A stretch of 64,000 nt of DNA from an uncultured Bdellovibrionales bacterium (GTDB taxonomy: Bacteria > Patescibacteriota > Minisyncoccia > Moranbacterales > GWC2-37-73). Position numbers and translations under genes: made by a program. Positions 17,616 through 56,000 of the stretch are shown in pieces; the stretch's first letter is position 1, and the number at the start of each line of letters is the position of its first letter. The DNA lies in assembly GCA_964500125.1 (NCBI GenBank), contig CAZCMV010000002.1, forward strand, positions 4,173-68,172, in the 5' to 3' direction. The notes beneath the pieces were generated by a model. The model searched no databases. It was not told the origin of the DNA and saw nothing but the letters and a program-made list of their open reading frames with translations.

Positions 17616-17623
17616 AAAATAAA

Positions 17624-18523: not shown

Positions 18524-18646
18524 AAAAACATAAAAGATAAGAGGCATAGTCATCGCCAATAGAAAACCTTTATTCAAAAGAAGCTAAGGTCACAGATTTT
18601 TTGCAATGCTGCTGTGTCATCCTTGCTAGAAATATCAAAAACTTTG

Positions 18647-18720: not shown

Positions 18721-18820
18721 TGAATAAAAACTAATGCGATTTTACCATTCCCAGGCAGACAAGTCTAGCCAGTTGAGTTAAGTAATCTCATGTTTTTTCG
18801 AGCATAGCAGACATATCTAT

Positions 18821-19762: not shown

Positions 19763-19788
19763 ATTTTTAATTTTTGAGCACTTTCCAT

Positions 19789-21618: not shown

Positions 21619-21643
21619 ATTTATCCTTTTTTATAATAAATTA

Positions 21644-35514: not shown

Positions 35515-35645
35515 ATCGTATGTAAGAGCGACTCTAATACGCTAATTTGTCACCCTAATGACTCTAATAAATCCATTCGGGTCATTAGAGTGTCCGCCTC
35601 CGCCAGTTGGCGGATGGCGGAATTCGTAAATTAGAGTCGCCTCTT
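35515..35645. repeat. composite intergenic repeat element copy b, MITE-like, with inverted termini GAGCGACTCTAAT ... ATTAGAGTCGCCTC and nested GC hairpin
   Basis: Four TTAGAGT/ACTCTAA cores in inverted symmetry; right half near-identical to 13452..13508. Confidence 0.6.
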
Positions 35646-36793
35646 TAGCTTCTTATCGGCATGATAACGTAGGTAAAAGAATCTACAACTTTATTATCGT
35701 CACCTTCGGTAATTTTCAAAACAGCAGGAGAAGCACTGTCATTAAGCATTAACATCAGACGTGCAGATGAAACAGCTTGAACTCCATCAACCATATATCT
35801 TGGATTGAATATGATTTTTATGTCCGGACCTTCTATTCTTGCTCTCAGAATAGTTTGATTATCACCAATATCTTCTGCGCGTGACTGCACTGAAACTTGT
35901 TGCTCATTGGCTTCCGCAGAAATATGCACTTCGCCGGCCTTGTTGCTCGTAAAAACTCCGGCAAGCTTAACTGCGCGAAGTACTTCATCTTTTTCTAAAA
36001 CTATCTTTGTCTTGAAAGATTGAGGGATAATTTGTTTATAAGGAGGATATTTACCGTTAATCAGACGTGACACAATTCGCACATTATCAACTTGAAAGAA
36101 TATCTGACTTTCTTCAATTCCCACCAACACTTCCTGAGTTTGTTGACCAATAACACGTAAAACTTCAGCCATCGTATGCATCGGAACAATTGCAGAAGGA
36201 TTTTTTTCCAAAAAAGCTGCATATATTTGCGTATCTTTAGGTTTTGCGACAAGCACGCTTTCCGCTAAACGAAAACTATCCGTAGCAGCAAGGTGCACCT
36301 CGTCTGCAAACAACATCATATTGATACCTGTTAACTCCGGCCTAGTTGAATCCAAGGAAACACACGTAATCAATTTGGATAAATGTTCTCTTAATTCCTG
36401 AGCATCTATCGAAAAAAGGAAATCACCTTCCATTTCGGGAATTATCGGAAAATCATGTGCTTGCAAACCTTTCATGCGAGCTTTGGAAGAACCACTGGAA
36501 ATTTGCAAGATTTGATCTTTGAGCACCAGAGATATAGTGCCATCAGCAGAAAGGTTATTCACGAAATTGCTAAGCAACTTGGCTGGCACGGTAATTTTTC
36601 CCGCCTCCTCTATCTTGGCGCCTATCTTTAGAAAAACGCCTATTTCCAAATTAGTTGCCGAAACCTTAAGCATTCCTTGCTCTGTTTCCAAAAGAATATT
36701 TTCCAAAATAGGCAAGGCTATTTGTTTGCCCACCACTCGTTCAGTGTTATATATTGCTTTTTTGAAATTTTCCTGAGTACAAGTGACTTTCAT
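35645..36793 (-). CDS. dnaN: DNA polymerase III subunit beta (sliding clamp)
   Basis: 382 aa, three-domain clamp architecture, adjacent to dnaA. Confidence 0.9.
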   Translation of the reverse strand: MKVTCTQENFKKAIYNTERVVGKQIALPILENILLETEQGMLKVSATNLEIGVFLKIGAKIEEAGKITVPAKLLSNFVNNLSADGTISLVLKDQILQISSGSSKARMKGLQAHDFPIIPEMEGDFLFSIDAQELREHLSKLITCVSLDSTRPELTGINMMLFADEVHLAATDSFRLAESVLVAKPKDTQIYAAFLEKNPSAIVPMHTMAEVLRVIGQQTQEVLVGIEESQIFFQVDNVRIVSRLINGKYPPYKQIIPQSFKTKIVLEKDEVLRAVKLAGVFTSNKAGEVHISAEANEQQVSVQSRAEDIGDNQTILRARIEGPDIKIIFNPRYMVDGVQAVSSARLMLMLNDSASPAVLKITEGDDNKVVDSFTYVIMPIRS

Positions 36794-36891
36794 ATTCGTT
36801 TCTCGCTTTATTCGGATTAGTTTTGCAAATTTTCCGCATATGCCAACACAAAGTTCGCATATACATATGTAAAGAAATTCTAGAAATTATC

Positions 36892-38301
36892 TTAAGACAA
36901 ACTATACAATTTCTCCCTTATCATCATCAAATCTTCCTTTAATTTTTCATCTGTTTCTAACTCACGATTTATTTTTTCAAACGCATGTAATACAGTTGTG
37001 TGGTCACGTCCTCCAAATTGCTCACCAATTCCCGGATAAGAAGCATTTAGCTCGCTACGCATAATATACATTGCGATCTGGCGGGCACGAGCAACTTCTT
37101 TTTTTCTTCCTTTATCTATGAGGCTCTTTACCGGAATGAAAAAATAGGCAGACACCACGTTGATTACATCTTGCATCTGCACTCCCTTTTTCTTGCCTGA
37201 AGAAATTATTTCAGATAAAGTTTGTTTGACAAATTCCAGGGTCGGAAGTTTTTTATTAAATTCACAAGCCGCAATTATACGATTAAGAGCTCCTTCCAAT
37301 TCACGAATATTATTCCTTACATGTTCAACAACAAAAAACATCGTTTCATCATCCAAATAAAAATGCTTTTCCGCCAGCTTTGCTTTAAGAATAGCTGTAC
37401 GCGTTTCAATATCAGGTGCGCTGATATCAGCAATCATGCCCCCTTCAAATCTCGAACGCAAGCGCTCCTCCAATGTTGCAATTGCCTTAGGTGGACGATC
37501 GGAACTGATTACGATTTGTTTATTTATCTGGTATAACGCATTAAAGATGTGAAAAAATTCATTTTGAGTTTTTTCCTTGCCAGAAAGAAATTGTACATCA
37601 TCAATAATAAGCAAATCTATCTCTTGATAGGAGGCTTTGAACTCGTTAATATTCTGATTTCGAATCGATTCAATTAATTCATTAGCAAATCTTTCGGAGG
37701 TGATGTATTTTACTTTTCTTTCGGGATATTTGCGTAAAATTTCATTACCAATTGATTGCAACAAGTGTGTTTTACCCAACCCTACTCCGCCGTATATAAA
37801 AAGCGGATTATACACTCTACCTAAATTCTGGGAAACCGCATAACAAGCGGCGCGTGCCAACTCATTATTTTCACCAACAATAAAGTTTTCAAAAGTATAA
37901 CGAGAGTTAATATTGCTTTCAAAACCAATTGCAACAGGAGTCGTTTTTTTTGGCTCACTTGTTTGTTGTCCAGATACAATCCTAACTGGCTCTTGCTTTA
38001 AAACGATTGAATCAAGGGTTTTATTTTCAGTTTCGGCAGATACTTCAGGGGCATTAATAATACAACTTATTTCCTTTACATCAGTTTGGTAATTACGAAG
38101 TGCCCTATATATATAGGCGTTATATTTGTTTTCTAACCATTCTTTTGCAAAACCATTAGGAACAGCAATTACTATTTTTCCCGACTCATTTGAAAGAATA
38201 GACGTGTTTTTAAACCACGTCACAAAATTAGCTTTCGAAATCGAAAGCTCTATCTCCCCCAAGACAGCCTCCCAAAGCTCCTTGTTATTCATACGTTCCA
38301 T
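36892..38301 (-). CDS. dnaA: chromosomal replication initiator DnaA (start placed at MERMNNKELW; ORF track extends to 38346 over the first DnaA box)
   Basis: Walker A GGVGLGKTHLL, box VII, C-terminal DNA-binding helix with basic loop. Confidence 0.95.
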   Translation of the reverse strand: MERMNNKELWEAVLGEIELSISKANFVTWFKNTSILSNESGKIVIAVPNGFAKEWLENKYNAYIYRALRNYQTDVKEISCIINAPEVSAETENKTLDSIVLKQEPVRIVSGQQTSEPKKTTPVAIGFESNINSRYTFENFIVGENNELARAACYAVSQNLGRVYNPLFIYGGVGLGKTHLLQSIGNEILRKYPERKVKYITSERFANELIESIRNQNINEFKASYQEIDLLIIDDVQFLSGKEKTQNEFFHIFNALYQINKQIVISSDRPPKAIATLEERLRSRFEGGMIADISAPDIETRTAILKAKLAEKHFYLDDETMFFVVEHVRNNIRELEGALNRIIAACEFNKKLPTLEFVKQTLSEIISSGKKKGVQMQDVINVVSAYFFIPVKSLIDKGRKKEVARARQIAMYIMRSELNASYPGIGEQFGGRDHTTVLHAFEKINRELETDEKLKEDLMMIREKLYSLS

Positions 38302-38512
38302 GCATTCATTATGTATGAAAAAGTATAACATCGTCAAGTTATCCACACCAGCAGTTTTAAAAATGTATACTGTTAATAACCTGTGGATAAATAATGATTA
38401 CATCCACATCTTTCCCTTGGCCTGCTTTTCGATTAATTTATTGACTTTTTTACGCTAAATTGGTACACTTTTGCTTAGTACTGAATATAATTACTAAATT
38501 CCTATATCAAGT
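38302..38512. other. oriC region: DnaA boxes TTATCCACA (38339..38347), TGTGGATAA (38382..38390), ATCCACA (38402..38408) plus AT-rich unwinding stretch, between dnaA and rpmH
   Basis: Consensus boxes visible; canonical rpmH-dnaA intergenic location. Confidence 0.75.
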
Positions 38513-38647
38513 ATGAAAAGGACTTATCAACCAAAGAAGCTAAAAAGAAAACGCCGCCATGGCTTTCTGAAAAGAATGGAAACCCCTAATGGAGCAAAAA
38601 TTATCAAGAGTCGACGACAAAAAGGCCGTAAAAAGCTTTCTGTTTAA
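38513..38647 (+). CDS. rpmH: 50S ribosomal protein L34 (44 aa; below ORF-track cutoff)
   Basis: [44 protein letters not shown]. Confidence 0.9.
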
Positions 38648-38655
38648 ACAAAACT

Positions 38656-38997
38656 ATGCTGCCCAAAGAATTACGACTCAAAAATAGCGATGATTTTCAA
38701 GAAGTCTTCGCCAAAGGGACCGTATATTCTTTGCGCGGCATTTTTGTAAAGATTTTGCCGACAAAAGAATCTGCAACAAAAATAGGCTTTGTGATAAGCA
38801 AAAGCTGCGCCAAAACCGCGGTGGAGCGCAATAGATTGAAAAGAATAATGCGCGCAGCAATAAAACCATCAATAAAAACATTAAAACCCGGCTTTAATAT
38901 TGTAATCGGTTATAGCGCCAAAGAAAAAGAGGTGTGTTCTCGTAATTTAGAACCGATTATCAATCAATTATTAAATAAATCAAAAGTGCTCTCTTAA
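38656..38997 (+). CDS. rnpA: ribonuclease P protein component
   Basis: 113 aa basic; follows rpmH; KNRLKRIMRAA motif region. Confidence 0.85.
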   Translation: MLPKELRLKNSDDFQEVFAKGTVYSLRGIFVKILPTKESATKIGFVISKSCAKTAVERNRLKRIMRAAIKPSIKTLKPGFNIVIGYSAKEKEVCSRNLEPIINQLLNKSKVLS

Positions 38998-39008
38998 AAA
39001 GAAAAATT

Positions 39009-39755
39009 ATGCCATTTTTTCACGAACTAATCTATCAGCCTCTTTATAATTTATTAGTGTTTTTATACAATTTTCTGCCCGGAAGCGATTTTGGTATTGC
39101 AATTATTGTTACAACCATATTGCTACGCTTTATTCTTGTTCCAGTATATAGAAAACAGATAGAGTCTCAACAGAAGATCCAAGAATTGCAGCCAAAAATA
39201 AAAGAGCTCCAACAAAAATATAAAGATGATAAGGAAAGACAAACCAAAGAAATGATGGCTTTGTACAAGCAACACAAAACTAATCCTTTTTCCGGATGTT
39301 TACCCTTAATAGTGCAATTGGTCTTTTTAATAGCGATTTATCGAATTCTTTTTTCCATCTCTTCACAAGGATTAATAGTTTCTTCGGAAGAACTTTATTC
39401 TTTTATTCCAAACCCTGGAAACATAAACCAGCTCTTCATTTCTATTATCGACCTAACAAAACCAAGCATTCCTATTGCTGCACTTGCTGCCCTTGCTCAA
39501 TATTTCCAAACTAAGATGCTGATGCAAAAAAACCAGCATCAATCAAAGGATAAAGTTAAACCTTCCAATTCTGATGAGCCTGACATCGCTCAAATGATGA
39601 GCAAACAGATGCTGTATTTGGGACCAGTTCTTACCCTGGTAATCGGAATTAAATTTCCCGCAGGATTAGCCCTATATTGGCTTTCCTCAACTCTTTTTAT
39701 GCTAGTACAACAAATAATTTTGCAGAAAAAAAAGCTCAAAGTTTCCAAGGCCTAA
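39009..39755 (+). CDS. yidC: membrane protein insertase YidC (short form)
   Basis: Five-TM core, conserved YidC position after rnpA. Confidence 0.8.
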   Translation: MPFFHELIYQPLYNLLVFLYNFLPGSDFGIAIIVTTILLRFILVPVYRKQIESQQKIQELQPKIKELQQKYKDDKERQTKEMMALYKQHKTNPFSGCLPLIVQLVFLIAIYRILFSISSQGLIVSSEELYSFIPNPGNINQLFISIIDLTKPSIPIAALAALAQYFQTKMLMQKNQHQSKDKVKPSNSDEPDIAQMMSKQMLYLGPVLTLVIGIKFPAGLALYWLSSTLFMLVQQIILQKKKLKVSKA

Positions 39756-39773
39756 TATTTATATTTCAAGAAT

Positions 39774-40250
39774 ATGGAAGAAAAAATGCAAATCATAATC
39801 AAAAAATCTATTGAGGAACTTTTTGAACATATGGGTTTTAAGGTTTCTGTATCAATGGATATTTCCAAGGATGAAGATACAAACATCGTATGTAACATAC
39901 AAAGCGAAAATGACTCCAATCTGCTCATAGGTCAAGGTGGAATAAATTTACAAGCAATTCAACACTTGGCAAGATTAGTCGTTCGCAAGAAGCTTGAAGA
40001 TAAAGTGCGTTTTATTATTGACATAAATAACTATCGTCAAGGGAAAAATCAATCCATTATAGAACTGGCAAATCAAGCCGCCGCTCAAGCATTATCAGAA
40101 AGACGCTCTATAATTTTACGCCCAATGTCAACATACGAAAGAAGGATTGTGCACATAGAACTTTCTAAAAATTCTTCTGTTGTAACCGAAAGCATTGGAG
40201 AAGGTGAAAGTCGCAAGGTGGTAATTAAGCCAGCAGGAATGATCGGTTAG
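39774..40250 (+). CDS. jag: Jag/KhpB RNA-binding protein (KH + R3H domains)
   Basis: C-terminal R3H ERRIVHIELS; follows yidC. Confidence 0.75.
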   Translation: MEEKMQIIIKKSIEELFEHMGFKVSVSMDISKDEDTNIVCNIQSENDSNLLIGQGGINLQAIQHLARLVVRKKLEDKVRFIIDINNYRQGKNQSIIELANQAAAQALSERRSIILRPMSTYERRIVHIELSKNSSVVTESIGEGESRKVVIKPAGMIG

Positions 40251-43494: not shown

Positions 43495-44769
43495 ATGCAA
43501 ATTATGTCTCAAATCTTGCTCGGCATATTTTTATTATATCTTCCTTGGCAAATTGCCATAAATCCAATCGAAGGGGTTGATCTGGCTTCAGCGCGCATTT
43601 TTTCCTTGTTTATTTTCATTATATGGCTTATTGAAAGCCTTTTTTCGCGTAATTTCAAAATTAATCTGCGTTTGCAATCTCTTTGTTTGCTTGTTTTTTT
43701 ATTTTTTGGCTTATTTTCCCTACTTTTTGCCCAATATCCAACTTGGGGACTCAGAAAACTGTTATTTTTGCTTTCCTTTGTCCCAATTTATTTTGTAGTA
43801 GCAGATTTGGCAACAAATCCTAGAAGCAAATTTTCCCTTATTAAAGCCTTAGTTTTAGGAGCTTCCTCAATTTCATTTCTTGGACTTATTCAGTTTACCG
43901 CTCAATATTTCGTTGACAAAAGTCTCTTGGCTCAATTTTGGGGTCATTATATTTCACCTTTATTTTTAGGCAAATCTTTTGCAGCTGCCGTCCAAGATTA
44001 TCCCAGCTGGTTTGTTAATATCGCTGGCAGAGATTACTTTCGCGCAATTTCCGTTTTTCCCGATCCACACATGTTGGCTTTCTTTACCGGAATGACTTTG
44101 CCCTTTGCCATATCTATATATTTAAAAAGCAAGCGCTTTCGTTATTTTTGGCTCTGCTTCGCCTTTATACTTTTGGCGACAAATCTGCTAACTTTCTCTC
44201 GAGGGGGATATTTGGGATTACTTTTAGCCTTTTTCTTTTTTATACTTTGGCTGTTTCTAAATCATCGCCCAAATCTCTCCAGGGGAACGATAATAGGCAC
44301 AGGAATCATTTTTGTGGTCATTTTAGTATCTGTCTGCGGGCCAATTGGAAATCGTCTGATAAGCTCATTTTCGTCCTCTGAGGGCTCCAATGCTGGAAGA
44401 ATTCAAACTTGGCAAGCCGCTTTTTCTGTTATCGCTTCTCATCCTATGGGCGTAGGCATCGGAAATTATGCATTAGAAATAAAACCAAGCGCAGATTATC
44501 GCGAACCCATCTATGCACACAGCCTTTATTTGGACATTGCCGCCGAAACAGGCCTTATTTCACTTCTTTTCTTTATTACATTTTTATTTGCTACAATAAA
44601 GTCATTCCTTGCGACATCAAGAACAGATCTTTTCGCAGTTGCTGGATTTTTAAGTATCATTGTTTTTGCTGCGCATTCCTTGGTAGAAAACCCAATATTT
44701 TCAGTTCATGTATTGCCTGTTTTTCTTATTATAAGCGCTTTTAGCACACCGTATGAAAAAAAAATATGA
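43495..44769 (+). CDS. O-antigen ligase / Wzy_C-family membrane protein (start uncertain: 43432/43456/43495)
   Basis: Polytopic; SRGGYLGLLLAFFF loop motif typical of O-antigen ligase family. Confidence 0.55.
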   Translation: MQIMSQILLGIFLLYLPWQIAINPIEGVDLASARIFSLFIFIIWLIESLFSRNFKINLRLQSLCLLVFLFFGLFSLLFAQYPTWGLRKLLFLLSFVPIYFVVADLATNPRSKFSLIKALVLGASSISFLGLIQFTAQYFVDKSLLAQFWGHYISPLFLGKSFAAAVQDYPSWFVNIAGRDYFRAISVFPDPHMLAFFTGMTLPFAISIYLKSKRFRYFWLCFAFILLATNLLTFSRGGYLGLLLAFFFFILWLFLNHRPNLSRGTIIGTGIIFVVILVSVCGPIGNRLISSFSSSEGSNAGRIQTWQAAFSVIASHPMGVGIGNYALEIKPSADYREPIYAHSLYLDIAAETGLISLLFFITFLFATIKSFLATSRTDLFAVAGFLSIIVFAAHSLVENPIFSVHVLPVFLIISAFSTPYEKKI

Positions 44770-45952
44770 TCCTATAATTATTTCTATCTGTCTCACTATT
44801 GTCAGCTTGCCTCTATATCTTGTTAAGTTTTCTTTTTTTAGTCTACCTCTAAATCTTCTTTTGCTAATTTCCTTGTTTTCCTTGCTAGTAATAATTTCAC
44901 ACACTTCTCTCAAAAATGCTTTTTTATTTTTAAAAAACAACCGACTTATTATTTTTTTCACTTTGCTAATAATTTTCGGCTGCCTTTTGTCAATTTGGCA
45001 CAACGGCTTTTCACCAAGATCATTTTCTATTTTTATTCAATGGATTTTATTACCTGCCATCTTTGGTTTTTTTGCGGCCATAAATTTGCAAAATAAAGAA
45101 TCTCAACTGGACACTATTTTACTTTCTTTGTTCGTTTCAACTACTTTTGTTTCAGCAATAGCTTTATCCTACGCCATCCTAGGAATTTTTACTTACGATA
45201 GCCGCCTAAAAGCCTTCTATGAATCACCCAATCACTTGGCGATGTACATCATGCCAGGAGTTTTTCTCGGCACTTATTTTTTCATCAAAGCAAAGAAAGA
45301 AGATTTACTTGATAAGTCCTTGCTATATTCAATTTTAACTGTTTTTATAATTATTACTTTAACATTAACAAAATCAGCAGGTGCGATGATTGCAGTCCTT
45401 TTTTCTTTACCTTTGGCCTTCTTTTTTATCCGGAGTGGTCTTTTTCGCTACACTGCCAGATTAATACTTCTGTTTGGTTTTACTTTTTTGCTGTCACTTA
45501 GTTTGTTTAGTGCTACCCAAATCACTTATTTGTCGCATGTACCGGAAAGATCATCCTTGGCTTCCCGCTTCATGATTTGGCAATCAGCAACAAAAATATT
45601 GCTTGATAATCCGCTTTATGGCATAGGTCCAGGAAACTTTCAAGCAAAATATCTGGCCTATCAAAAATATTTCCCACCTTATTTGGAATGGGCCGTGCCA
45701 GAGCCGCATAATTTATATTTGGCATTTTGGCTACAGACTGGTTTGCTTGGATTTATTGGTTTTATTCTTTTAGTCTTACTTGTCTTGAAATCACTTGCAT
45801 TTAAAACCAAACAAAAAAATGCCTTGCTTGCTTGGACGCTTTTGGGCATTTTTGTTGCTCTTCTTATGCACGGATTGATTGATACGCCTTATTGGAAAAA
45901 TGATCTGGCTTTTGTTTTTTGGATATTATGCGAAATTGCTTTCCTAATCTAA
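44753..45952 (+). CDS. second O-antigen ligase-like membrane protein
   Basis: Polytopic; TKSAGAMIAVLFSLPLAF loop and conserved His near C-terminus. Confidence 0.5.
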   Translation: MKKKYDPIIISICLTIVSLPLYLVKFSFFSLPLNLLLLISLFSLLVIISHTSLKNAFLFLKNNRLIIFFTLLIIFGCLLSIWHNGFSPRSFSIFIQWILLPAIFGFFAAINLQNKESQLDTILLSLFVSTTFVSAIALSYAILGIFTYDSRLKAFYESPNHLAMYIMPGVFLGTYFFIKAKKEDLLDKSLLYSILTVFIIITLTLTKSAGAMIAVLFSLPLAFFFIRSGLFRYTARLILLFGFTFLLSLSLFSATQITYLSHVPERSSLASRFMIWQSATKILLDNPLYGIGPGNFQAKYLAYQKYFPPYLEWAVPEPHNLYLAFWLQTGLLGFIGFILLVLLVLKSLAFKTKQKNALLAWTLLGIFVALLMHGLIDTPYWKNDLAFVFWILCEIAFLI

Positions 45953-46692
45953 CTTCCTGTATCATATACTTGCTGCTTTATTTCATTTAAACATTTCACT
46001 GAATTGGTTATTATTATAAAATCATCCACTATTTCATAAGAAATACTGCTAACTTGATCATCAGGCATCCTTACCTTGGCATATCTTTGATATTTACCAT
46101 CAAACATCAGTTCTTGCTGTAAATGCTCCGGAGAAAAACTAATTTCCGGAAAAATAACTGATTTAACATCTTGCAACATGGTTTTCTCCCAATTCTTCAT
46201 GAAGCTAACTTCATCCATATAAAGATCTCCTTCATAACCTTCCATCAACTTAATCTTTAACAGGATTCCCATGCCTTTAAAAGTTTCCTGGGAACTGAAG
46301 GAGCACACGAAATTGCTATAATCATTCGTTTCAAGCAAACTGTATAAATTGTCTTCTATATTTAAATTAATCGCCTTGGCAAATTCATCGAGTTTTGCAG
46401 AAGTTCCGGCAGAATCTAACCACACTGTCTCTTTGCTGATTGGCGAAGAAACAAATTTAGAAAATGAATCCCTGATTTCATTTTCTTTGCTCCCCTTTTC
46501 AGATTTTTCAATATCTGAAATTTCGTTATTCACGGGTCTTTCCACTATTGGCATTTCAGATAATTGCTGTTGATCATTTTTTGGTTCAACAAAAACATTA
46601 TTTTTTTTATCAAAATAAACTGCAATGGCAATTACCACTATTGATATAATACTTAACACTGAAATTGCAATTAAAACTATTTTTTTATTCAT
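45949..46692 (-). CDS. hypothetical N-terminally anchored protein (247 aa), last gene of envelope operon
   Basis: Single N-terminal TM; no domain recognised. Confidence 0.4.
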   Translation of the reverse strand: MNKKIVLIAISVLSIISIVVIAIAVYFDKKNNVFVEPKNDQQQLSEMPIVERPVNNEISDIEKSEKGSKENEIRDSFSKFVSSPISKETVWLDSAGTSAKLDEFAKAINLNIEDNLYSLLETNDYSNFVCSFSSQETFKGMGILLKIKLMEGYEGDLYMDEVSFMKNWEKTMLQDVKSVIFPEISFSPEHLQQELMFDGKYQRYAKVRMPDDQVSSISYEIVDDFIIITNSVKCLNEIKQQVYDTGS

Positions 46693-46701
46693 ATTGTTTT
46701 T

Positions 46702-47586
46702 TTATTTACAATAATCAGACGCTCTTATAACACCTTTGCAGTTGGCCATATCTTTGGAAGTAACATTACCATTAACTAAACCAGTTTTTGTTCCTGCAGC
46801 ATGAATCTTAACCGTACATCCCTCATTTTTACAAATAAACACATGTCCTCCGGAAAAAGACGATGGGCTTCTTATGACAACCGCATCTCCTGTATGTAAA
46901 GAGCTTTGGGGAACACATCCTTTGGTACGACTAGCCATTTGCCCCGTAGAACCACCGGGGGATTTGCATCCGGCGTTTTTATAGGCATTTTCAACAAAAT
47001 TTGAACAATCAGTATAGGGAGGATTTCCCTTACAGCCATTTCTCGAACAACCATACTTGGGATTACAATAACGACAACCGCTATTTTTTAATTTTTCCGC
47101 AGCATCTAATACCTGACCTTTTGCAACGCTATTATCATTACCATCCGAAAATTTCACAGGTCCTTCTGCAGCATTTGGCATTGATGCCGTATTTACTTCT
47201 ACTGAAATCAAATTAAGATTCAATTTTACCAAATCCGGATTGATAACATAAAGCAAAATATATGCTGTAAGCACTGCAACCAATCCAATAATAGCATCGG
47301 TTATGATATTTTTAGCAGTGGTTATGGAAGCATTGTTTCCTGCACTAGTTACATAAAGAAAACCTCCCACAGTAAGCATGAAAAAAGCTGCAATACCTAC
47401 GGTCCAAATAAAGAATTTGTAAATAGCAGAAAGAAGGTCAGGAAAAGAAGGTGATGAACCAGCATTAAAGAATCCCGGAAATTGTTCGAGAAGTTTGTAT
47501 TCAAATGCTGCTTGAGCATGCTGAGACAAGAGAAAGCAAAAAGATATACTCAGGCAGAAGCAAAGAAAAAATTTCTTGCTTTTCAT
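46702..47586 (-). CDS. bitopic membrane protein: conserved two-helix N-module (pilin-like) fused to C-terminal CHAP-type amidase/peptidase domain
   Basis: N-module identical to paralog 49242..50168; C-terminus DCSNFVENAY...GDAVVI...GGHVFIC (Cys and His of CHAP). Confidence 0.55.
   Translation of the reverse strand: MKSKKFFLCFCLSISFCFLLSQHAQAAFEYKLLEQFPGFFNAGSSPSFPDLLSAIYKFFIWTVGIAAFFMLTVGGFLYVTSAGNNASITTAKNIITDAIIGLVAVLTAYILLYVINPDLVKLNLNLISVEVNTASMPNAAEGPVKFSDGNDNSVAKGQVLDAAEKLKNSGCRYCNPKYGCSRNGCKGNPPYTDCSNFVENAYKNAGCKSPGGSTGQMASRTKGCVPQSSLHTGDAVVIRSPSSFSGGHVFICKNEGCTVKIHAAGTKTGLVNGNVTSKDMANCKGVIRASDYCK
47204..47571. repeat. 368-bp direct repeat copy 1 (one mismatch to 49754..50121)
   Basis: Identity verified by eye over the whole length; encodes the shared N-terminal module. 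Confidence 0.9.
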
Positions 47587-47597
47587 ATGTTTATTTT

Positions 47598-48746
47598 CTA
47601 TAGTTTTATTTTATAAATCTTGGAATCTATTTTGTTTATAAAAAACAATGCATCTTCGTTATTGGAAAGAAAAATCTTGGAAGCATCATATTTCTCAGAC
47701 AATTCATTGAGTTCAACAATTCTTTCCTTTTTTCCTGTTTCAATGTTTATCTTCCAAAAAGTATCAACTGTATTAAATTTTTCTGCAAGATAATCGTTAG
47801 GAATCACAACATTCTCAGGAATCCCACCCGGCAAAGCATAATATACGGTTTTATTGTCCGACGACCAAACACACTTAGATGCAAATGTAGGAATTCCCAA
47901 GTTTTTATATTCGCCATTCTTGTCAATTATGCCCAGAACAATTTTCTTGCTGTTTTCTTCTTCAAGACTGCTGATAATAGCGTGTTGTCCATTTGGCGAC
48001 CATAAATAATCGGCTCCAAATTTTCCTCCGAATATTTTTTTCAAATCGGTTCCGCCTATGCCTACCACAAAAAGTTGCGTTTCTTCAGATGCCCAGGGGG
48101 AATTCCAAAAAGAAATATTTGAAGATTGCGGCACAGCCGAAACACTCACATGCTTAAATGGAATATCAACAATTTTTTTCCAATTGCTGCCGTCCGGATC
48201 GGCCACATTCAGCGTTCTTTCTTTTTTTTGCGAATCGAAATATTTATATATTATTTTCGCTCCGATTCCATCCCATTTCACTGTATCAAGGTTTTCTTTT
48301 AACTTAGTACCCTTACCGTTAGCATAGTTATACGTATAAAATTCCGTCTTGCCTTTTTTATCAAACGTAGATATCACTTGAACGCCATCAGGTGACCAAG
48401 TAACACTTTGAAGTCCAACTAACTCTTCGTCTGCAACGCTTTTTTTTCCGGAAGCATCCGTATTAACGTCCCAAACCCTTCCATCAACAGCATAGTACCT
48501 AATCATTTCAGAATCTTTAACATAAGCAGCACTAACAACGCCCTCATCGGAAACAGCTGCAACAATTCCTTTTTTGTCAGTTCCGATATCTGAAAACATA
48601 TCGCCTTCTTTTTTTATAGAAACGTTTGTGTCTTCAATATTAGCATTTTTAGCATTTTTATTACTAAAAGCAAAATTATACACACCCCAAAAAAACAGGG
48701 TGATTCCTAATACGATCAGAGTTATAATAAATATTTTTTTGATCAT
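47598..48746 (-). CDS. TolB-like beta-propeller protein (PD40/WD40-like repeats), N-terminal anchor
   Basis: Repeated ...SPDG/SPNG... blades (TWSPDGVQV, YLWSPNGQH, VWSSDNKTVYY). Confidence 0.5.
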   Translation of the reverse strand: MIKKIFIITLIVLGITLFFWGVYNFAFSNKNAKNANIEDTNVSIKKEGDMFSDIGTDKKGIVAAVSDEGVVSAAYVKDSEMIRYYAVDGRVWDVNTDASGKKSVADEELVGLQSVTWSPDGVQVISTFDKKGKTEFYTYNYANGKGTKLKENLDTVKWDGIGAKIIYKYFDSQKKERTLNVADPDGSNWKKIVDIPFKHVSVSAVPQSSNISFWNSPWASEETQLFVVGIGGTDLKKIFGGKFGADYLWSPNGQHAIISSLEEENSKKIVLGIIDKNGEYKNLGIPTFASKCVWSSDNKTVYYALPGGIPENVVIPNDYLAEKFNTVDTFWKINIETGKKERIVELNELSEKYDASKIFLSNNEDALFFINKIDSKIYKIKL

Positions 48747-48773
48747 TTTTATAAAGAATTTATTCTGTCATTA

Positions 48774-49235
48774 TCAAAAAAAAGATTTTCCGTTCGGACA
48801 AAAACTAAGTCCATAATTTTCCCCCGCCAATTCATTGTTTACATTGTATGGAAAAGTCAAATATACATCCAACTTGCATGCTTCCTCTTCATTTATTTTG
48901 AGTGTTTGCAAAAAGTCTTTTTCCGCCTCATCACGAGCATCGTTTTCATTTTCTTTGGCTAATATAAGAATAACAAAATTATTATCTTCCTCAAAATAGG
49001 TAGTGTTAAAATTTTGTTTTTCTCTGAAAGTAATGGTTCCTGAAAATTTTTCTGCAGAATCAGAATATATTGCACTACTATCAAAATTATTCTGCACGTT
49101 TTCTGATATATTCGAAGGATTTGTGCTGTTTGTTTTTTCAAAACCTTTGTCTTGTTTCGGTAACATGAAAAAAACAACTCCTGCGCTAATCAATATCAGA
49201 ATAATTACAATTATTATTATTCTTTTTTTTCTCAT
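48774..49235 (-). CDS. hypothetical small anchored protein (153 aa)
   Basis: N-terminal TM; Asn/Glu-rich. Confidence 0.35.
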   Translation of the reverse strand: MRKKRIIIIVIILILISAGVVFFMLPKQDKGFEKTNSTNPSNISENVQNNFDSSAIYSDSAEKFSGTITFREKQNFNTTYFEEDNNFVILILAKENENDARDEAEKDFLQTLKINEEEACKLDVYLTFPYNVNNELAGENYGLSFCPNGKSFF

Positions 49236-49241: not shown

Positions 49242-50168
49242 TTAAAAATGGCATGACTTATTAGTGCTCCATTGATTCCAACCCAATCTTAGAATCTTAC
49301 AAGATATTTGTATATTGAAACTAGCATCTTTTAATTTTCTTTTGCATTCTTCATATTGTGCTTCTTTGCCGCTTTTCACTTCACAATCATATCCTTTGTT
49401 CCCTATCCTTTTTCCTTGCATGCCACCGCCGTATGTATTAAAAAGCTTGTCACATCCAGGAATCCTATATCCGTTTGCAATTAAATTAACTTGAAAAAGA
49501 CCCACGGAAAATGCTTGTTTTTTTCCATTATGTATACAAACATCGGATGTGCTTTCCAGGGCAGGCACTCCTTCACTTTCCAAGTGGCATATGGATGAGG
49601 CCTTTTTTGCTGCTGCTCCAAAACAAGTATTACTCAGTGTTTCTACGGAACAAGGTGTTTTTGTTTCAGGAGTGCATTTTTTGTCTGAACGACCTCCTCC
49701 AGTGACGCTTCTAGTTTCACTTTGTTCCGTCCTTAATTCATTTAAATTCAAAGAAATCAAATTAAGATTCAATTTTACCAAATCCGGATTGATAACATAA
49801 AGCAAAATATATGCTGTAAGCACTGCAACCAATCCAATAATAGCATCGGTTATGATATTTTTAGCAGTGGTTATGGAAGCATTGTTTCCTGCACTAGTTA
49901 CATAAAGAAAACCTCCCACAGTAAGCATGAAAAAAGCTGCAATACCTACGGTCCAAATAAAGAATTTGTAAATAGCAGAAAGAAGGTCAGGAAAAGAAGG
50001 TGATGAACCAGCATTAAAGAATCCCGGAAATTGTTCGAGAAGTTTGTATTCAAATGCTGCTTGAGCATGCTGAGACAAGAGAAAGCAAAAAGATATACTC
50101 AGACAGAAGCAAAGAAAAAAATATCTGACCAGTTTTCTTGGTTTTCTTTTTTTTGTTTTTATATTCAT
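49242..50168 (-). CDS. bitopic membrane protein: same N-module fused to lytic-transglycosylase (SLT/lysozyme-like) domain
   Basis: CHLESEG...AFSVGLFQVN resembles SLT catalytic Glu-Ser and GLMQ motifs; Cys-rich. Confidence 0.5.
   Translation of the reverse strand: MNIKTKKRKPRKLVRYFFLCFCLSISFCFLLSQHAQAAFEYKLLEQFPGFFNAGSSPSFPDLLSAIYKFFIWTVGIAAFFMLTVGGFLYVTSAGNNASITTAKNIITDAIIGLVAVLTAYILLYVINPDLVKLNLNLISLNLNELRTEQSETRSVTGGGRSDKKCTPETKTPCSVETLSNTCFGAAAKKASSICHLESEGVPALESTSDVCIHNGKKQAFSVGLFQVNLIANGYRIPGCDKLFNTYGGGMQGKRIGNKGYDCEVKSGKEAQYEECKRKLKDASFNIQISCKILRLGWNQWSTNKSCHF
49754..50121. repeat. 368-bp direct repeat copy 2
   Basis: See copy 1. Confidence 0.9.
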
Positions 50169-50209: not shown

Positions 50210-52990
50210 TCAAACAGTTTTATTTTTACCCAATCCCGGTGTGACATAGAAAATAGCTCCCATAACAACAATCATCAAGACAGCAGTTAATGCAAGTCTC
50301 AACAAAAACATCATCTCTCCTGGAAGATTGCTTACCAGACTTGCCATTAATCCTCCTTTTGCCTTGGCTAATTCATCATAACTTTGAACAACTTCCACCT
50401 CCGCCGAGGAGTCCAAATACCTTTCCGTTGCATCTTGTGCGGAAACTCCCCAAATATTATAAAGGGCTTTTCTCACATTCAAAACCTGCTCTTCATCTGT
50501 CGCCATAGCATAAACAGCTTCTATTGAAACATCGTAAGTAGAGCCCTCCCCATTTTCTGCAAGAAACTCAAGGTTTTCACTGTTTGCATATTGATCACCA
50601 TCAACTTCCCAAAAATAAGTCGCATAGCTGCTTATCCATGATGGCGTGAAAGCAGCCTTCATAAACACGCTGTTTCCTTGAATCGTTTCAAAAAGAATAC
50701 TACTATTATCAGCGGTTTCATTTCCCTCCATATCTTTGTATATTCCCAGTTGTTTGGGCCACACTAAATCCTTATTCGCAGATTCTATATTCACAGATGG
50801 TTGCACTATCTTAAATTTTCTATTCACTGTTTGAGCCATTTTTGTTTTCGTGTCTTTGAATGTAACTTCGGCTTCAAATATTTCTCCGTCTGTTCCAACT
50901 GCTGGAAAAAATATAATGTTACTACCCGTTTCTTTGCATTCAGAAGAATGTTCACTATTGCAAAAAACATTTTCTTTGTTTATTTTCCAAGAAAAATTCA
51001 CTAATTGACCATCCTTATTAGGAATAGCTAAACCTATTATGGAATTTTCTATTATAGGACATTCTGCAAGTTCCTCTCCCTCTGTACAAATCTCACTATC
51101 CTTTTTTAAACTAATCTTACCATCATCATCCGCTTTTACCAGATAAGCATCTATATCAGTGCTAGATTTAGTTAATTGTACAATAGCTGATCCCCTACCT
51201 ATCCTATTTTGTTCCGAAGAATTTTCAGATACCTTGGCTTTTATTCTTATATATTGTACCAGTCTATTGGAACCATAAAAAATGTCATCTGGAAATTCAG
51301 CCTTAAATTCAAACTCATTAATACCAAAACCTTTCATTGTTGAATGTTTTTCTAATTTATTTGTGACATCAATCCATTTATCATCCAAGGGCGCTTTTGT
51401 TCCATCATTACTTGCCTCAACGGTCCACTCATAATAAAGAGAAGAAACATCATCTGTTCCACTGACGGTCGTTTGTGCTTTTATATTATCACCCGTGCCG
51501 GTGCGCGTAGAATCATTATTTGCTCTACTTGGATTAGCTAAAACATTTACTTCTAAATTTCCAACACCACCTCCGGTCGGATCCAAAAGATTTTCTTCAA
51601 GACAATCATTTAAATCAAAATCAACCGTGAGGAATCCTGTGTCAATTTGAGGAACTTTTTGATATTCAACATAAAAAGCTCTCTTCTTTTTTATTTCATC
51701 ACTAAATTTCTTACAAACATTATTTGAGAAAGCCCAAGTTCTCATATAGGCATTGTCATCATGCTTGGTAGCAACAGCACTAATACCCTCAACAGCAAGC
51801 CCTACCTGATCCCCAGACCTATAAGTCCAAGAAAATGACTTCGCTCCCAAACCAAGCACATTAGCCTCGTCCGGAATACCGTTTTCGGCAGTAGACTTAT
51901 TATTTGGATCAGTTCCCCAAAATTTCTCCTCAGCCATTTCAAAATCCCCGTCTCCAGTTTTTATATTTGAACCACGAAGATCCTTAGGAGCAACTTGGGT
52001 TGGAAACAAATGCTTACAAAGATTATTAGATTTCTTGAAAGTACAGGTTGGCGATCCTGTTGATATAACAGAACACATCCCTCCAGCACTCAGATCCTCT
52101 TTTAAAATATTGCATATAAACTCCTTATTTGCAGAATCGTTGACAATATATTCAAAAATAGTCCTATTTGATTGTCCGCAAACCGGATTTTTTTGTTGTG
52201 TCGAAGCTAAACCACTGATTTGAGGACACTTAACTCTAGCTTGAAAATTTTCAACATCCTCATCACTTTCCACTTTGCACTCATAATCGTCAGTCTCTGC
52301 ACATATATTGCGAGTACCGGATTCACAAGTTATCAACTCATTTTTACCACAAGCCACAGATCCTCCTGATTCACAAGAATAAACAGGGATCGTTTTTCTT
52401 AACTCATAAAATCTTCCTTTTTCAAAATCTTGAATATAACAATCCTCTATATCCACATCATTTTGAGATTTATATGGCATTTCCCAATCACCAGGATCAG
52501 GACTAACCTCATACCCATCACTATTGGAATCACTAGAGCTATTATAATCAGTATCATTCTCCTTATCAAAGTCTCCTTTAGCAATTATTTTAGCAGCCTC
52601 TATCTTCCAATCATTAACTGTAATCTTGCCATCATTATCCCTATCACATGAACCACCTGAAGATCCTAATTCACAGCCCTCTCTTTTTAAATACCAAGTA
52701 TAATAAAGTTCATCAGAATCTTCTTTAAATCCCTGTGGTAAGGCTTGTGCCACTATCTTATCTCCGGTTCTGGCTGTTAGATTATCAAATGTCACCTTAA
52801 CTTCCACGCCTTGTTTTTTCATAGAAGCTGAGTATGCCTCTTTTAAATCAGAGGGGCGTAATAATTGTATCCTTCCCCCAACTACTGGATCAGCTGCCAA
52901 AGAAAAAAGTGGAGATAAAATTAAAACAATAACTTGAAAAGTTAAATAAAAAATAAATATTATTTTTTTTGTTTTAAAAAAAGAATTCAT
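50210..52990 (-). CDS. 926-aa Cys-rich secreted surface protein with EF-hand/dockerin-like Ca sites and C-terminal TM anchor
   Basis: Signal peptide; DRDNDGKITVND; GTDPNNKSTAENGIPDE; more than 40 Cys; C-terminal LALTAVLMIVVMGAIFYVTPG helix. Confidence 0.55.
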   Translation of the reverse strand: MNSFFKTKKIIFIFYLTFQVIVLILSPLFSLAADPVVGGRIQLLRPSDLKEAYSASMKKQGVEVKVTFDNLTARTGDKIVAQALPQGFKEDSDELYYTWYLKREGCELGSSGGSCDRDNDGKITVNDWKIEAAKIIAKGDFDKENDTDYNSSSDSNSDGYEVSPDPGDWEMPYKSQNDVDIEDCYIQDFEKGRFYELRKTIPVYSCESGGSVACGKNELITCESGTRNICAETDDYECKVESDEDVENFQARVKCPQISGLASTQQKNPVCGQSNRTIFEYIVNDSANKEFICNILKEDLSAGGMCSVISTGSPTCTFKKSNNLCKHLFPTQVAPKDLRGSNIKTGDGDFEMAEEKFWGTDPNNKSTAENGIPDEANVLGLGAKSFSWTYRSGDQVGLAVEGISAVATKHDDNAYMRTWAFSNNVCKKFSDEIKKKRAFYVEYQKVPQIDTGFLTVDFDLNDCLEENLLDPTGGGVGNLEVNVLANPSRANNDSTRTGTGDNIKAQTTVSGTDDVSSLYYEWTVEASNDGTKAPLDDKWIDVTNKLEKHSTMKGFGINEFEFKAEFPDDIFYGSNRLVQYIRIKAKVSENSSEQNRIGRGSAIVQLTKSSTDIDAYLVKADDDGKISLKKDSEICTEGEELAECPIIENSIIGLAIPNKDGQLVNFSWKINKENVFCNSEHSSECKETGSNIIFFPAVGTDGEIFEAEVTFKDTKTKMAQTVNRKFKIVQPSVNIESANKDLVWPKQLGIYKDMEGNETADNSSILFETIQGNSVFMKAAFTPSWISSYATYFWEVDGDQYANSENLEFLAENGEGSTYDVSIEAVYAMATDEEQVLNVRKALYNIWGVSAQDATERYLDSSAEVEVVQSYDELAKAKGGLMASLVSNLPGEMMFLLRLALTAVLMIVVMGAIFYVTPGLGKNKTV

Positions 52991-53015: not shown

Positions 53016-53678
53016 TCACTTAATCGCTATAACACTTGCATCAACTATGATCAAAAAAATAATATGCGCAATAGTAGAATAAACCAAAGACTTGCTCTTA
53101 AATACAATAATTCCTGAAAATAAGGAAAATATTAAATAAGGTACAAAATACCAATCAAGAGAATTTGTAAGTACAAGAAGTAGAAAAAAAACAATTGTTT
53201 GCGCTAATATTGCAAAATAACCTATTTGTTTTTTCAAGGAAAGCATCAGAAATCCCCTGAAAAAAAATTCATAAAATACTACAAAAGGAAGTACTAGTGA
53301 AAATTCATAAAATAAAAATTTAAAAAAGTTTGCCTGAATTTCTCCTTCCAAAATATACTGCAATGAAAATTCTGTATAATAAAAAACCACATAAAAAAAC
53401 AACAGTGCTATAAGCAAGGAAATGAAACCGTATAAAAAACCTTTTCTCCATTCACCTAAACAAATACCTATCTCTCTAAGAGGTTTTTTTGTAACAATTA
53501 AATTGAAAAAAAATGGGACCAATAAGAAGAAAGATATGGTTACTGCAATATTTTGAAAATTATTTTTTGTGGGAAAAATCGAATAAATAACGACAATAAA
53601 TATTGCAAATAAACTGTTGAAAATAACTTCTTTTTTCATATTTTGTTTTATAAATATTGCAAATAGATTATAACACAT
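53016..53678 (-). CDS. CPBP/Abi-family intramembrane metalloprotease-like protein (start uncertain; possibly MKKEVIF near 53639)
   Basis: Polytopic; YEFFFRGFL (EExxxR-like) and STIAHIIFL (HxxxN/D-like) motifs. Confidence 0.5.
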   Translation of the reverse strand: MCYNLFAIFIKQNMKKEVIFNSLFAIFIVVIYSIFPTKNNFQNIAVTISFFLLVPFFFNLIVTKKPLREIGICLGEWRKGFLYGFISLLIALLFFYVVFYYTEFSLQYILEGEIQANFFKFLFYEFSLVLPFVVFYEFFFRGFLMLSLKKQIGYFAILAQTIVFFLLLVLTNSLDWYFVPYLIFSLFSGIIVFKSKSLVYSTIAHIIFLIIVDASVIAIK

Positions 53679-53969
53679 GAATGATTTAAAAACAAAACAT
53701 ATTATTTCAATATCTGGTCAATCTTTTTTAATAAGTTTTTTTTGATCTCTTCTAATTATATATTCTATATATAATATAATTAAAAATATTATTACTATTA
53801 TTAGGAGATTGGATAAGTGGATAAATATAAATAAAGGCTTCTTTAATAATAAATTATTCTAAAATATTATTGAATAAAGATCTTTTTTGTAGTGTTTAGA
53901 CTTGTTCATAACTTTTTTATGACAAAAATAAAAATTTTTAACCAAACTAATATACAAGATCTCAAAAGG

Positions 53970-54082
53970 TTATCAACAAATAAAAAGAGTTTATTTATAG
54001 ATTATCCACAATTTATACACAAGCAATTTTTATTTTTTGCTTAAGGAGAAGCATAAAAGGATAAATCCACAAGTTATCCACA
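53970..54082 (+). promoter_or_regulatory. cluster of five or six co-oriented DnaA-box-like 9-mers (TTATCAACA, TTATCCACA, TTATACACA, AAATCCACA-AG-TTATCCACA)
   Basis: Two exact consensus boxes plus three one-mismatch boxes within 113 bp, overlapping lspA 3' end and upstream of the envelope operon. Confidence 0.5.
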
Positions 54083-55264: not shown

Positions 55265-55951
55265 AAATCAGCTATTTAGATACAAAAAAACACCCTATCC
55301 GGGCACTTCTCTTATTAAAATCATTTCCGTGGTATGGTTACCCGGCGCTGCAAGCGCCCAAAATATGTAATATGTGGCGGCAGCGCCGGATGTTTGTCAT
55401 GTACCAACATGTTAATCTGAAACTTTTAGCCCGGGTGAAGTGGCATCGAGTTTACCCATAACATGTATTTTGTGTACATGTTTATTTTTTTGACTGCTTG
55501 TCCCTGAGTTTTATTTTTCACAAGAGTCTTTCTTCTACCGTTCTCTGGTCTTTTGACCTTTGTTTTTAGAAAGAACTTTTCTTTTTCTTTTTTATTTTTG
55601 TTTTTTGAAAAAGATTTTTTTATTTTTGTTTTTAGGGTCCTCCGCTCAGGATTTTTGAAATACGAAGGCGGTTTTGAAATGTTATTCAAAACACTTGAAT
55701 AGTAGAAGAGTTCCAACCACAAATAGGGGGAAATTGTGATTGGAATTCTTCCACCATCTCGCAACGGTATATGTTTTTAAGAAACTTATGTATCCATTAT
55801 AGCAGAAAAAATGTGGGGAGTCAATTTTATGAAACTAAAAATTTATATTTTGGCTTCAATAATGTGTATTTATGAATATCTTCAGTATGGATATCGAAAG
55901 CGTGTATTTTTATAGTTAGAAAAAATAAATTACTTTCTGTTTTGCCCATAG

Positions 55952-55971
55952 TTTTCCACAAGTTATCCACA
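55952..55971 (+). promoter_or_regulatory. tandem DnaA-box-like pair TTTTCCACA-AG-TTATCCACA
   Basis: Same 20-bp architecture as 9922..9941 and 54062..54082. Confidence 0.4.
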
Positions 55972-56000
55972 TACGAGTTGCAATCTATCAAAAAATTGCT

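Follow-up and report, generated by a model that had tools for sequence, protein, structure and literature searches.

The subject of this study is a predicted 926-aa surface protein encoded on the minus strand of a 64,000-nt stretch of DNA (hereafter the window) from an uncultured bacterium deposited as Bdellovibrionales and placed by GTDB in the Moranbacterales, together with the gene that lies directly upstream of it. We refer to the protein of 50210..52990 (-) by the working label BIG. Our results lead us to a model, which we regard as about an even call, in which BIG is a surface contact or recognition protein associated with a type IV secretion system (T4SS) and built of parts unrelated to PrgB or TraN, the contact proteins with which we compare it below. 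In most of the genomes that could be judged, BIG and its upstream partner, a protein of the CPBP fold whose catalytic residues have degenerated, are linked in an operon to T4SS genes, and some members of the family carry a lectin domain in place of a variable cassette. Membership of the T4SS operon in relatives and this swapped cassette both strengthen the contact or recognition role, which we consider plausible. We have high confidence in the structural and genomic description of the locus that follows.

Architecture and conservation of the BIG protein

The open reading frame (ORF) proposed by a first-pass annotation of this DNA was confirmed at 926 aa on the minus strand, with an ATG start, and an identical protein (P0001) is present in public data. 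A word-indexed search recovered at least 134 homologues of 820-1350 aa, all of them unnamed or 'hypothetical', and those that carry an organism label come from Moranbacteria or Parcubacteria only. In an exhaustive profile search, 527 representative clusters (50% identity) matched BIG at E<=1e-3; 379 of these reach E<=1e-30, and the majority align end to end. When one genome was scanned for each GTDB species, 129 had BIG, essentially all of them Candidatus Moraniibacteriota: the 80 listed genomes are Candidatus Moraniibacteriota, Parcubacteria or Patescibacteria metagenome-assembled genomes (MAGs), and the others are a large batch labelled 'uncultured Bdellovibrionales' that have the Moranbacterial gene order in common. 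These 'uncultured Bdellovibrionales bacterium' MAGs, which are binchicken co-assemblies (L008, L018, L024-L026 and ~35 further loci), carry the Moranbacteria-specific pair of CPBP-like gene and BIG, and their organism label looks wrong. One of them, L008, has a BIG protein 76% identical to that of the window and the same gene order. BIG is nearly always single-copy; the exception is Kiruna_bin-03023, in which the gene is present on two contigs.

The family is new to annotation and Pfam-dark. The window protein has no match in Pfam, NCBIfam, PHROGs or PADLOC, and none of 46 aligned members matched in a Pfam scan, save for a weak PKD_3 hit in 2 of the 46. Sequence searches of the PDB with the single sequence and with a profile returned no relative, and literature searches on Moranbacteria cysteine-rich surface proteins and on CPBP proteins with T4SSs in Patescibacteria returned no paper on the family. 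A prophage or defence-system origin was rejected, given that neither PHROGs nor PADLOC gave a match. The parts of the gene and protein referred to below are as follows:

50210..52990 (-): BIG gene, stop codon included, ATG start (ORF list)
52892..52990 (-): signal peptide, residues 1-33, with K-rich n-region, hydrophobic core and SLA/AD (hydropathy)
51551..52837 (-): predicted N-terminal head, residues 52-480 (AlphaFold2, 68 sequences, pLDDT 90.0, pTM 0.87)
52610..52645 (-): EF-hand/dockerin-type 12-residue Ca-binding-like loop DRDNDGKITVND, residues 116-127 (pattern and conservation)
52016..52441 (-): Cys-rich variable cassette, residues 184-325, with 12 Cys and a C-x7-C ladder at 206-238
51551..52015 (-): head core, residues 326-480, with the highest mean identity of all segments (0.45); includes FWGTDP...DEANV
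50381..51550 (-): predicted stalk of about three tandem immunoglobulin (Ig)-like beta-sandwich domains, residues 481-870 (all-beta, pLDDT mostly 80-92)
50213..50380 (-): C-terminal anchor, residues 871-926 (alignment of C-termini; AlphaFold helix 882-916)

The sequence supports a Sec-type exported, C-terminally anchored, multi-domain extracellular protein. By hydropathy, the N-terminal hydrophobic segment spans residues 10-33 and ends ...SLA/AD, and in the AlphaFold model residues 4-25 form a helix, with a disordered linker (27-51) after it. A single C-terminal transmembrane (TM) helix covers about residues 893-921 (nt 50240-50314 correspond to 893-917) and contains VLMIVVMGAIFYVTPG, residues 904-919. 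Both elements had been called in the first-pass annotation, which had named their absence from homologues as the finding that would speak against it. We observed the opposite, since all 46 homologues keep the C-terminal TM helix and 42 keep the N-terminal segment, with an internal TM helix in 0/46. The alignment of C-termini also reveals a conserved motif ahead of the membrane, A883...L-P890-x4-F895-L-L-[RK]898, and after the TM helix the family keeps a terminal 'P[ED]' and a short mixed-charge tail.

The description of this anchor as pilin-like, an echo of the N-module encoded downstream, did not survive closer comparison. Aligning the 46 C-termini with 35 pilin modules in hhalign gave a probability of 0.17% (E 0.34), with the best alignment falling on the signal peptide, and a Pfam scan found no PF18895 (T4SS_pilin) match on BIG. 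The GxxFYVTxxG likeness that suggested the idea is confined to the window sequence, and YVT is not conserved in the family. Two other modes of attachment were rejected as well: BIG has no LPXTG motif and is not a sortase substrate, and a lipoprotein, an idea prompted by the neighbouring lspA gene, would need a lipobox, which is absent; the first Cys is residue 106, and none occurs beyond residue 685.

The full-length AlphaFold2 model has a mean pLDDT (predicted local distance difference test) of 82.4 and a pTM (predicted template modelling score) of 0.50, which fits a beads-on-a-string arrangement. Modelled alone, residues 52-480 give the much higher values listed above and can be taken as one compact unit. 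Folded extracellular domains are thus confidently predicted, and their absence, the other observation that would have told against the first-pass annotation, is not what the models return.

Within the head, conservation is strikingly uneven. The first domain, D1 (residues 52-150), has a mean identity to the window protein of 0.41, and in the core H327, E354, E375, D394, E401, W388, W419, N467, C426 and C463 are invariant. The cassette between them varies more than any other folded segment, with a mean identity to the window protein of 0.20, and takes most of the insertions in the family; its Cys residues are lost as a block in ~1/4 of 232 homologues. In two members, P0094 and P0101, a Laminin_G_3/ConA-like lectin domain (PF13385; E 4.5e-24 and 1e-21) is found at residues 281-442, and in BLASTP it falls between residues ~200 and ~303 of the window protein, where it replaces the cassette. 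A conserved scaffold with an exchangeable, sometimes lectin-type module has the look of a ligand-recognition tip.

The invariant residues of the core could also be read in another way. At only ~30% identity across the family, H327, E354, E375, D394, E401, W388, W419 and N467 could form an active or sugar-binding site, and BIG would then be a membrane-tethered exo-enzyme or lectin that acts on the glycans or peptidoglycan of its own or a host's envelope. Such a role would suit the ConA-like lectin/glucanase domain of some members and the genes near BIG in the window, which encode peptidoglycan hydrolase fusions and a TolB-like propeller, with convergent Wzy_C, GT2 and flippase genes beyond. However, no hydrolase, lyase or carbohydrate-binding module resembles BIG in Pfam, the PDB or BFVD, envelope genes of this kind are neighbours in only ~20 of 84 loci, and the invariant acidic residues may merely bind Ca2+. 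We regard the role of a tethered exo-enzyme or lectin as quite improbable.

Residues 481-870 may be read as about three Ig-like stalk domains, a reading taken from generic matches of the predicted structure to Ig arrays. Foldseek aligned the full model to Dscam Ig1-4, NCAM Ig1-3, phage Hoc and the MG domains of complement C5 with E values of 1e-7 to 1e-5 and probabilities of 0.96-1.0, although the TM-scores on the query are low (0.09-0.13). Candidate disulfides in this region are C635/C644 and C677/C685. In its layout, a tandem beta-sandwich spacer between anchor and head, BIG resembles Ig-like-domain surface proteins such as the invasin/intimin stalks and phage Hoc, but it carries no Big_1/2/3 or other Pfam Ig family domain beyond the weak PKD_3 hits already mentioned. 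Membership of the alpha-2-macroglobulin/complement thioester proteins was rejected: there is no C.EQ motif, and the matches are to generic beta-sandwich arrays, with TM-scores of 0.12-0.13.

The Cys content of BIG is lower than first thought. More than 40 Cys had been claimed, often in CxxC, CxC or C-x(6-10)-C spacing, and we counted 20, with zero instances of either CxxC or CxC. The wider spacing is present, with nine C-x(6-10)-C instances that include four C-x7-C in succession at 206/214/222/230/238; two or more such spacings in a row arose in only 118 of 20000 composition-preserving shuffles. The protein's Cys content of 2.16% exceeds the 0.87% of 39 other window ORFs (binomial P 2.7e-4), a moderate enrichment, and 12 of its Cys fall within the 142 residues of the cassette. 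All 20 Cys columns are conserved, each in 32-46 of 46 sequences. Across the 232 homologues, certain Cys tend to be lost together (phi 0.89 for C106-C115, 0.70 for C426-C463 and 0.68 for C222-C293), a pattern expected of disulfide partners, and we infer that such bonds form.

The C106-C115 pair directly precedes the DRDNDGKITVND loop, where the claim of an EF-hand/dockerin-like element was borne out. BIG has a single match to the pattern D.[DN].[DN]G.[ILV]...[DE], which arose in only 54 of 20000 shuffles of the same composition; as in EF-hand loops, positions 1, 3, 5 and 12 carry oxygen-ligand residues, position 6 is Gly and position 8 is hydrophobic. Of 46 homologues, 41-44 keep each ligand residue (D116 in 42, D118 in 41, D/N120 in 44 and D127 in 44), and I/V123 is conserved in 39. 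Like dockerin and EF-hand loops, BIG thus has a 12-residue D-x-D-x-[DN]-G-x-[IV]-x-x-x-D with conserved ligands; unlike them, it has a single loop, with no EF-hand pair and no duplicated dockerin segment, and no Pfam EF-hand_* or Dockerin_1 match was found in the window protein or in any of the 46 members. The loop may bind Ca2+, as its ligand pattern suggests. A second motif, GTDPNN at residue 359, had been likened to thrombospondin type 3 repeats (GTDPNN...DE). The motif is there and is conserved, with the family consensus W-G-T-[DN]-P-x-[DN]-x-[SD]-T-A-x-N-G-x-x-D-E and T360, P362, T367, N370, G371, D374 and E375 retained. Thrombospondin membership was rejected, as no Pfam TSP_3 match was found and the Asp ladder is replaced by S-T-A-x-N-G.

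The CPBP-fold partner and linkage to T4SS genes

The gene that precedes BIG is the second component of the locus:

53016..53678 (-): CPBP/Rce1-fold polytopic membrane protein, 220 aa (207 aa if the start is the Met at 53639)

Its product matches the Pfam Rce1-like family (PF02517) with E 7.7e-9 and 36.2 bits, against a gathering cutoff of 22.4, and the gene ends 25 nt upstream of BIG on the same strand. Of 87 loci, 82 have a homologue as the next gene upstream of BIG in the same orientation, at a median distance of 12 nt; the other 5 loci have no upstream DNA. The first-pass annotation had described BIG as the second gene of an operon, behind a CPBP protease. Position and pairing hold in every testable relative, but the partner does not have the residues of an active enzyme. 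CPBP enzymes need both Glu of EExxxR, the His of FxxxH, and the His and Asn of HxxxN (PMC11980579). Among 80 partner orthologues, the position of the first Glu (Y136 in the window) is Tyr in 71, with the second Glu and the Arg kept, and the position of the HxxxN His (205) is S, Q or N. No alignment column contains >=15% His, and 25 of the 80 orthologues have no His at all. The motif register behind these counts was set by eye from the FRG motif and Pfam coordinates rather than from a structure-based alignment, because a PDB profile search with the CPBP-like alignment, made to obtain an Rce1 residue alignment, gave no match. A word-indexed search with the CPBP-like profile returned 38 close relatives only and did not extend the family. 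With catalytic residues missing across the orthologues, the partner cannot use the canonical CPBP mechanism, and we predict that it is a non-catalytic protein of the CPBP fold.

This prediction bears on whether the C-terminus of BIG could be a sorting signal that the adjacent protein cuts, releasing or re-anchoring BIG in the manner of myxosortase and MYXO-CTERM. CPBP enzymes are proven sorting proteases in Myxococcus, where the myxosortase MrtX has the residues E146, E147, H188, H223 and N227 (PMC11980579). The likeness is real as far as it goes: in both systems a CPBP-fold protein is tied to an exported protein with a C-terminal motif (A883, P890, F895 and R/K898 in BIG), a TM helix and a short tail. 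However, the partner lacks the first Glu, the motif-2 His and the motif-3 His and Asn. BIG itself did not show the MYXO-CTERM signature and was rejected as a protein of that type; its C-terminal region has no invariant Cys, and its tail is of mixed charge, not Arg-rich. The pairing also differs, in that one enzyme serves dozens of substrates in Myxococcus, whereas BIG and its partner are adjacent and one-to-one, with one substrate per genome instead of a family of tagged proteins. We consider cleavage by the partner very improbable.

Neighbour clustering was carried out over 84 loci, and contexts were judged on the 61 with >=3.5 kb of upstream DNA. Only two contexts of the pair were found, here called A (44/61) and B (17/61), with the window in B. 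In context A, the gene order is PrgI (VirB3-like, PF12666), a TraC-like/TrsD-type protein of ~230 aa, VirB4 (P-loop_TraG, AAA_10), a membrane protein of ~160-185 aa, the CPBP-like protein and BIG, all on one strand with median gaps of 12-18 nt, and the downstream genes lie on the opposite strand. The one context-A locus viewed beyond PrgI (L090) has a LysM-CHAP hydrolase gene and two unannotated ORFs on that upstream side. About 1.5 kb past BIG in the same locus (14075-22364), we also observed a gene for a 2529-aa protein with faint SpaA/SdrD_B-type matches, followed by a sortase gene, so some Moranbacteria also have a sortase-dependent giant surface protein beside the locus.

In context B, the pair is preceded by PNPase, a 391-aa ORF, yraN, a dksA-type gene and lspA, and followed by T4SS_pilin fusions to lysozyme-like or NlpC/P60 domains and a gene for a TolB-like propeller protein; Wzy_C, GT2, flippase, jag, yidC, rnpA and dnaA are convergent with these. 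Four hybrid loci (L031, L046, L051 and L076) have VirB4 upstream and the TolB-like gene downstream, with Wzy as well in all except L031, and this combination indicates that the two contexts are one locus rearranged at the 5' side of the partner gene. In one context-B genome, a T4SS core (two pilins, PrgI, a TraC-like protein, VirB4 and a 187-aa protein) lies at 37-59 kb and the pair at 106-120 kb; both contigs are 178,080 bp and the loci do not overlap, and core and pair are very probably ~50 kb apart on one contig. The synteny comparison suggested by the first-pass annotation returned both the pairing in every testable locus and a T4SS operon in 44 of 61.

The position of the locus on the chromosome is also of interest. 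Paceibacterial T4SS genes have been located near dnaA, rnpA and rpmH (PMC12102498). The window contains a replication-origin region at 35645-40250 (dnaN and dnaA, with rnpA, yidC and jag on the opposite strand), and BIG lies ~12 kb from dnaA, an origin-proximal placement that matches the Paceibacterial one.

The synteny can be accommodated by two readings other than a contact role within the T4SS. In the first, BIG would be a structural part of the machine, an envelope-spanning extracellular stalk or cap that replaces the VirB8/VirB9/VirB10-like elements missing from this monoderm-type system, and not an adhesin. Its place in the operon right after VirB4 and the small membrane protein, its single copy, its one-to-one partner and the good conservation of D1, the 326-480 core and the stalk would all suit such a part, and VirB8 homologues are largely undetectable in Patescibacteria (PMC12102498). 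Nonetheless, the pair has been retained after moving away from the T4SS core, very probably by ~50 kb; BIG occurs in Moranbacteria only, a far narrower range than that of the T4SS core, which extends across Patescibacteria; and a variable cassette with a lectin swap resembles a ligand-facing surface rather than a channel part. On balance, we think a structural role unlikely.

The second reading is that of the first-pass annotation, in which BIG would be a host-attachment adhesin of an episymbiont. Taken as independent of the T4SS, with the adjacency to VirB4 a matter of inherited gene order, this reading has in its favor an adhesin-typical architecture, a pair that is transcriptionally separate from the T4SS core in the window's own lineage, and a T4SS link that is wholly syntenic. 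It fits less well with the close spacing of the pair behind VirB4, on one strand, in 44 of 61 species-level genomes where BIG identity is only 27-35%, and with the fact that the relocated pair still lands beside genes for VirB2-like/VirB1-like fusions. An adhesin with no connection to the T4SS therefore seems to us distinctly unlikely.

Neighboring genes and other features of the window

In the window, seven closely spaced genes on one strand (gaps of 6-41 nt) form a cluster that begins with the pair. The remaining members of the cluster and the DNA upstream of the pair are as follows:

53679..54029 (-): AT-rich intergenic region of 351 nt, from lspA to the CPBP-like gene (sequence reading)
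49242..50168 (-): T4SS_pilin (VirB2-like) module fused to a lysozyme-like (SLT_3-like) domain (PF18895 E 2.1e-7; SLT_3 weak, 0.041)
45949..49235 (-): rest of the cluster, gaps of 6-27 nt, encoding a 153-aa single-pass protein, a 382-aa TolB-like beta-propeller, a T4SS_pilin-NlpC/P60 fusion and a 247-aa single-pass protein

The intergenic region is likely the promoter region and the breakpoint relative to the T4SS-linked arrangement. It contains a promoter-like TTGATA-16-TATATT at 53976..53949 (-) and is conserved only in the closest relative, L008; the scan for promoters and terminators as a whole was not above chance, with 30 found against 34.8 expected.

The lysozyme-like fusion gene starts 41 nt after BIG, and the second fusion (46702-47586, -) matches PF18895 with E 1.1e-7 and NlpC/P60 with E 4.7e-6. 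Judging from these domain matches, each fusion would unite a VirB2-like with a VirB1-like function in a single polypeptide. The two proteins are also very rich in Cys (4.8% and 4.2%). A 300-nt direct repeat (47191-47490 and 49740-50039), 98-100% identical, spans the T4SS_pilin N-modules of both genes and points to recent gene conversion; it probably explains why three independent public contigs with an identical BIG end 137 nt past its stop codon. The 382-aa protein matches the TolB propeller model TIGR02800 with E 2.7e-8, below the curated cutoff. At the far end of the cluster, the gene for the 247-aa protein (45949-46692, -) and the convergent Wzy_C gene (44753-45952, +) share 4 nt at their 3' ends (45949-45952), which leaves no space for terminators between the two units.

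A further feature of the region is a structured RNA of ~0.5 kb at about 55283-55786 (-), in a gene-free gap of 736 nt (55265-56000) between yraN and the 391-aa ORF, upstream of yraN-dksA-lspA. A TTGACT-17-TATAAT promoter of its own (55823..55795) and a possible terminator accompany it, and it is 66-83% identical at the DNA level in ~20 Moranbacterial loci whose BIG proteins share 30-54%. RNAalifold predicted 7 helices with a total of 58 pairs, of which 31 show compensatory changes; pairing holds in 97.6% of cells, compared with 35-41% when the partners are slid, and the observed covariation was reached by 0 of 500 shuffles. G-U pairs fix its strand, and an invariant hairpin loop reads AAUUUCCCCCUAUUUG. 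No Rfam 15 family matched the RNA at the gathering threshold or at E<=1, and it is no tRNA or tmRNA.

Proposed role of the pair and its meaning for Moranbacteria

We propose the following model for the contact role. BIG would be exported through Sec as a type-I surface protein, with its signal peptide cleaved, and would be held in the cytoplasmic membrane by its single C-terminal helix. Outside the cell, up to ten disulfides, and probably Ca2+ at the EF-hand/dockerin-type loop, would stabilise it; the three Ig-like domains would act as a stalk that raises the 430-residue head off the membrane, and the Cys-laddered cassette would be the evolutionarily plastic, ligand-facing part of that head. 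BIG and the CPBP-fold protein, its catalytic residues lost, would form a fixed two-gene module in which the partner docks or chaperones the C-terminal helix of BIG with no cleavage. The module would be functionally part of the Patescibacterial (MPF-FATA-like) T4SS, and BIG would be its contact or recognition component, keeping the Moranbacterium attached to a partner cell during T4SS action, comparable to PrgB or TraN.

The comparison with PrgB, from the Enterococcus pCF10 T4SS (MPF-FATA), is one of layout and context only. Both proteins are encoded with a monoderm-type T4SS, both have a signal peptide, a distal head, an Ig-like stalk and a C-terminal anchor, and the role proposed for BIG, keeping donor and target cells together, is that of PrgB. 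There is no sequence similarity between the two, however, and the head of BIG has no PrgB/AgI-II homology in Pfam or in a Foldseek search of the PDB. BIG is also anchored by a TM helix and not by LPXTG and sortase, and it has 20 conserved Cys and an obligate CPBP-fold partner, whereas PrgB has no such partner. TraN of F-like conjugative plasmids is a Cys-rich, disulfide-bonded mating-pair stabilisation protein of the T4SS operon, in which a variable region sets recipient specificity. BIG shares with TraN its place in a T4SS operon and a conserved, Cys-rich scaffold that includes a variable region. Unlike TraN, which is an outer-membrane protein of diderms, BIG has no Pfam TraN match, and size, fold and anchoring differ.

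Several points weigh against the contact role. Foldseek found no fold match for the head (best E 0.37 against the PDB and 0.32 against BFVD), and with the predicted structure matching nothing, nothing independent points to 'adhesin'; the stalk assignment, in turn, comes from matches with low TM-scores. The single copy and the conserved D1 and 326-480 core, with its invariant H, E, D and W, would fit a structural or enzymatic role as well. In the window genome, the pair is not beside VirB4, and local hidden Markov models for VirB4, PrgI, the TraC-like protein and the small membrane protein, run on six-frame ORFs, found no T4SS core gene within the 64 kb; in the Pfam-scanned ORFs of the window (all but about a dozen in 1-18 kb), we likewise saw housekeeping genes or no match and no T4SS core. 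The T4SS link of BIG is one of gene order within a single lineage, and it may partly be inherited synteny. Finally, the docking of the C-terminal helix by the partner is a conjecture of ours, and surface exposure, adhesion and T4SS dependence of BIG likewise enter the model as what its topology, architecture and gene order suggest.

A 2025 survey of Patescibacterial T4SSs reported no PrgB-like adhesin, with PrgB homologues absent, which leaves the contact role unfilled, and it is silent on CAAX or Rce1 proteins and on a protein like BIG (PMC12102498). We tentatively suggest, as a possibility rather than as our expectation, that the pair is a previously unrecognised, lineage-specific T4SS accessory module, in which a head of new fold with an exchangeable cassette selects the partner cell and a pseudo-protease docks the C-terminal helix. 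If so, the pair would supply the 'missing adhesin' of the T4SSs of the candidate phyla radiation (CPR), and a CPBP protease would have been turned into a non-catalytic receptor.

Other cells are indispensable to Patescibacteria (CPR). In Saccharibacteria, T4SS genes are essential for epibiotic growth (PMC12102498). Our work offers the BIG family as a concrete candidate for the contact component in one large CPR lineage, in which the variable cassette could explain host range. If this reading is wrong, Moranbacteria still have in BIG a conserved single-copy envelope protein that lacks annotation and merits a name.

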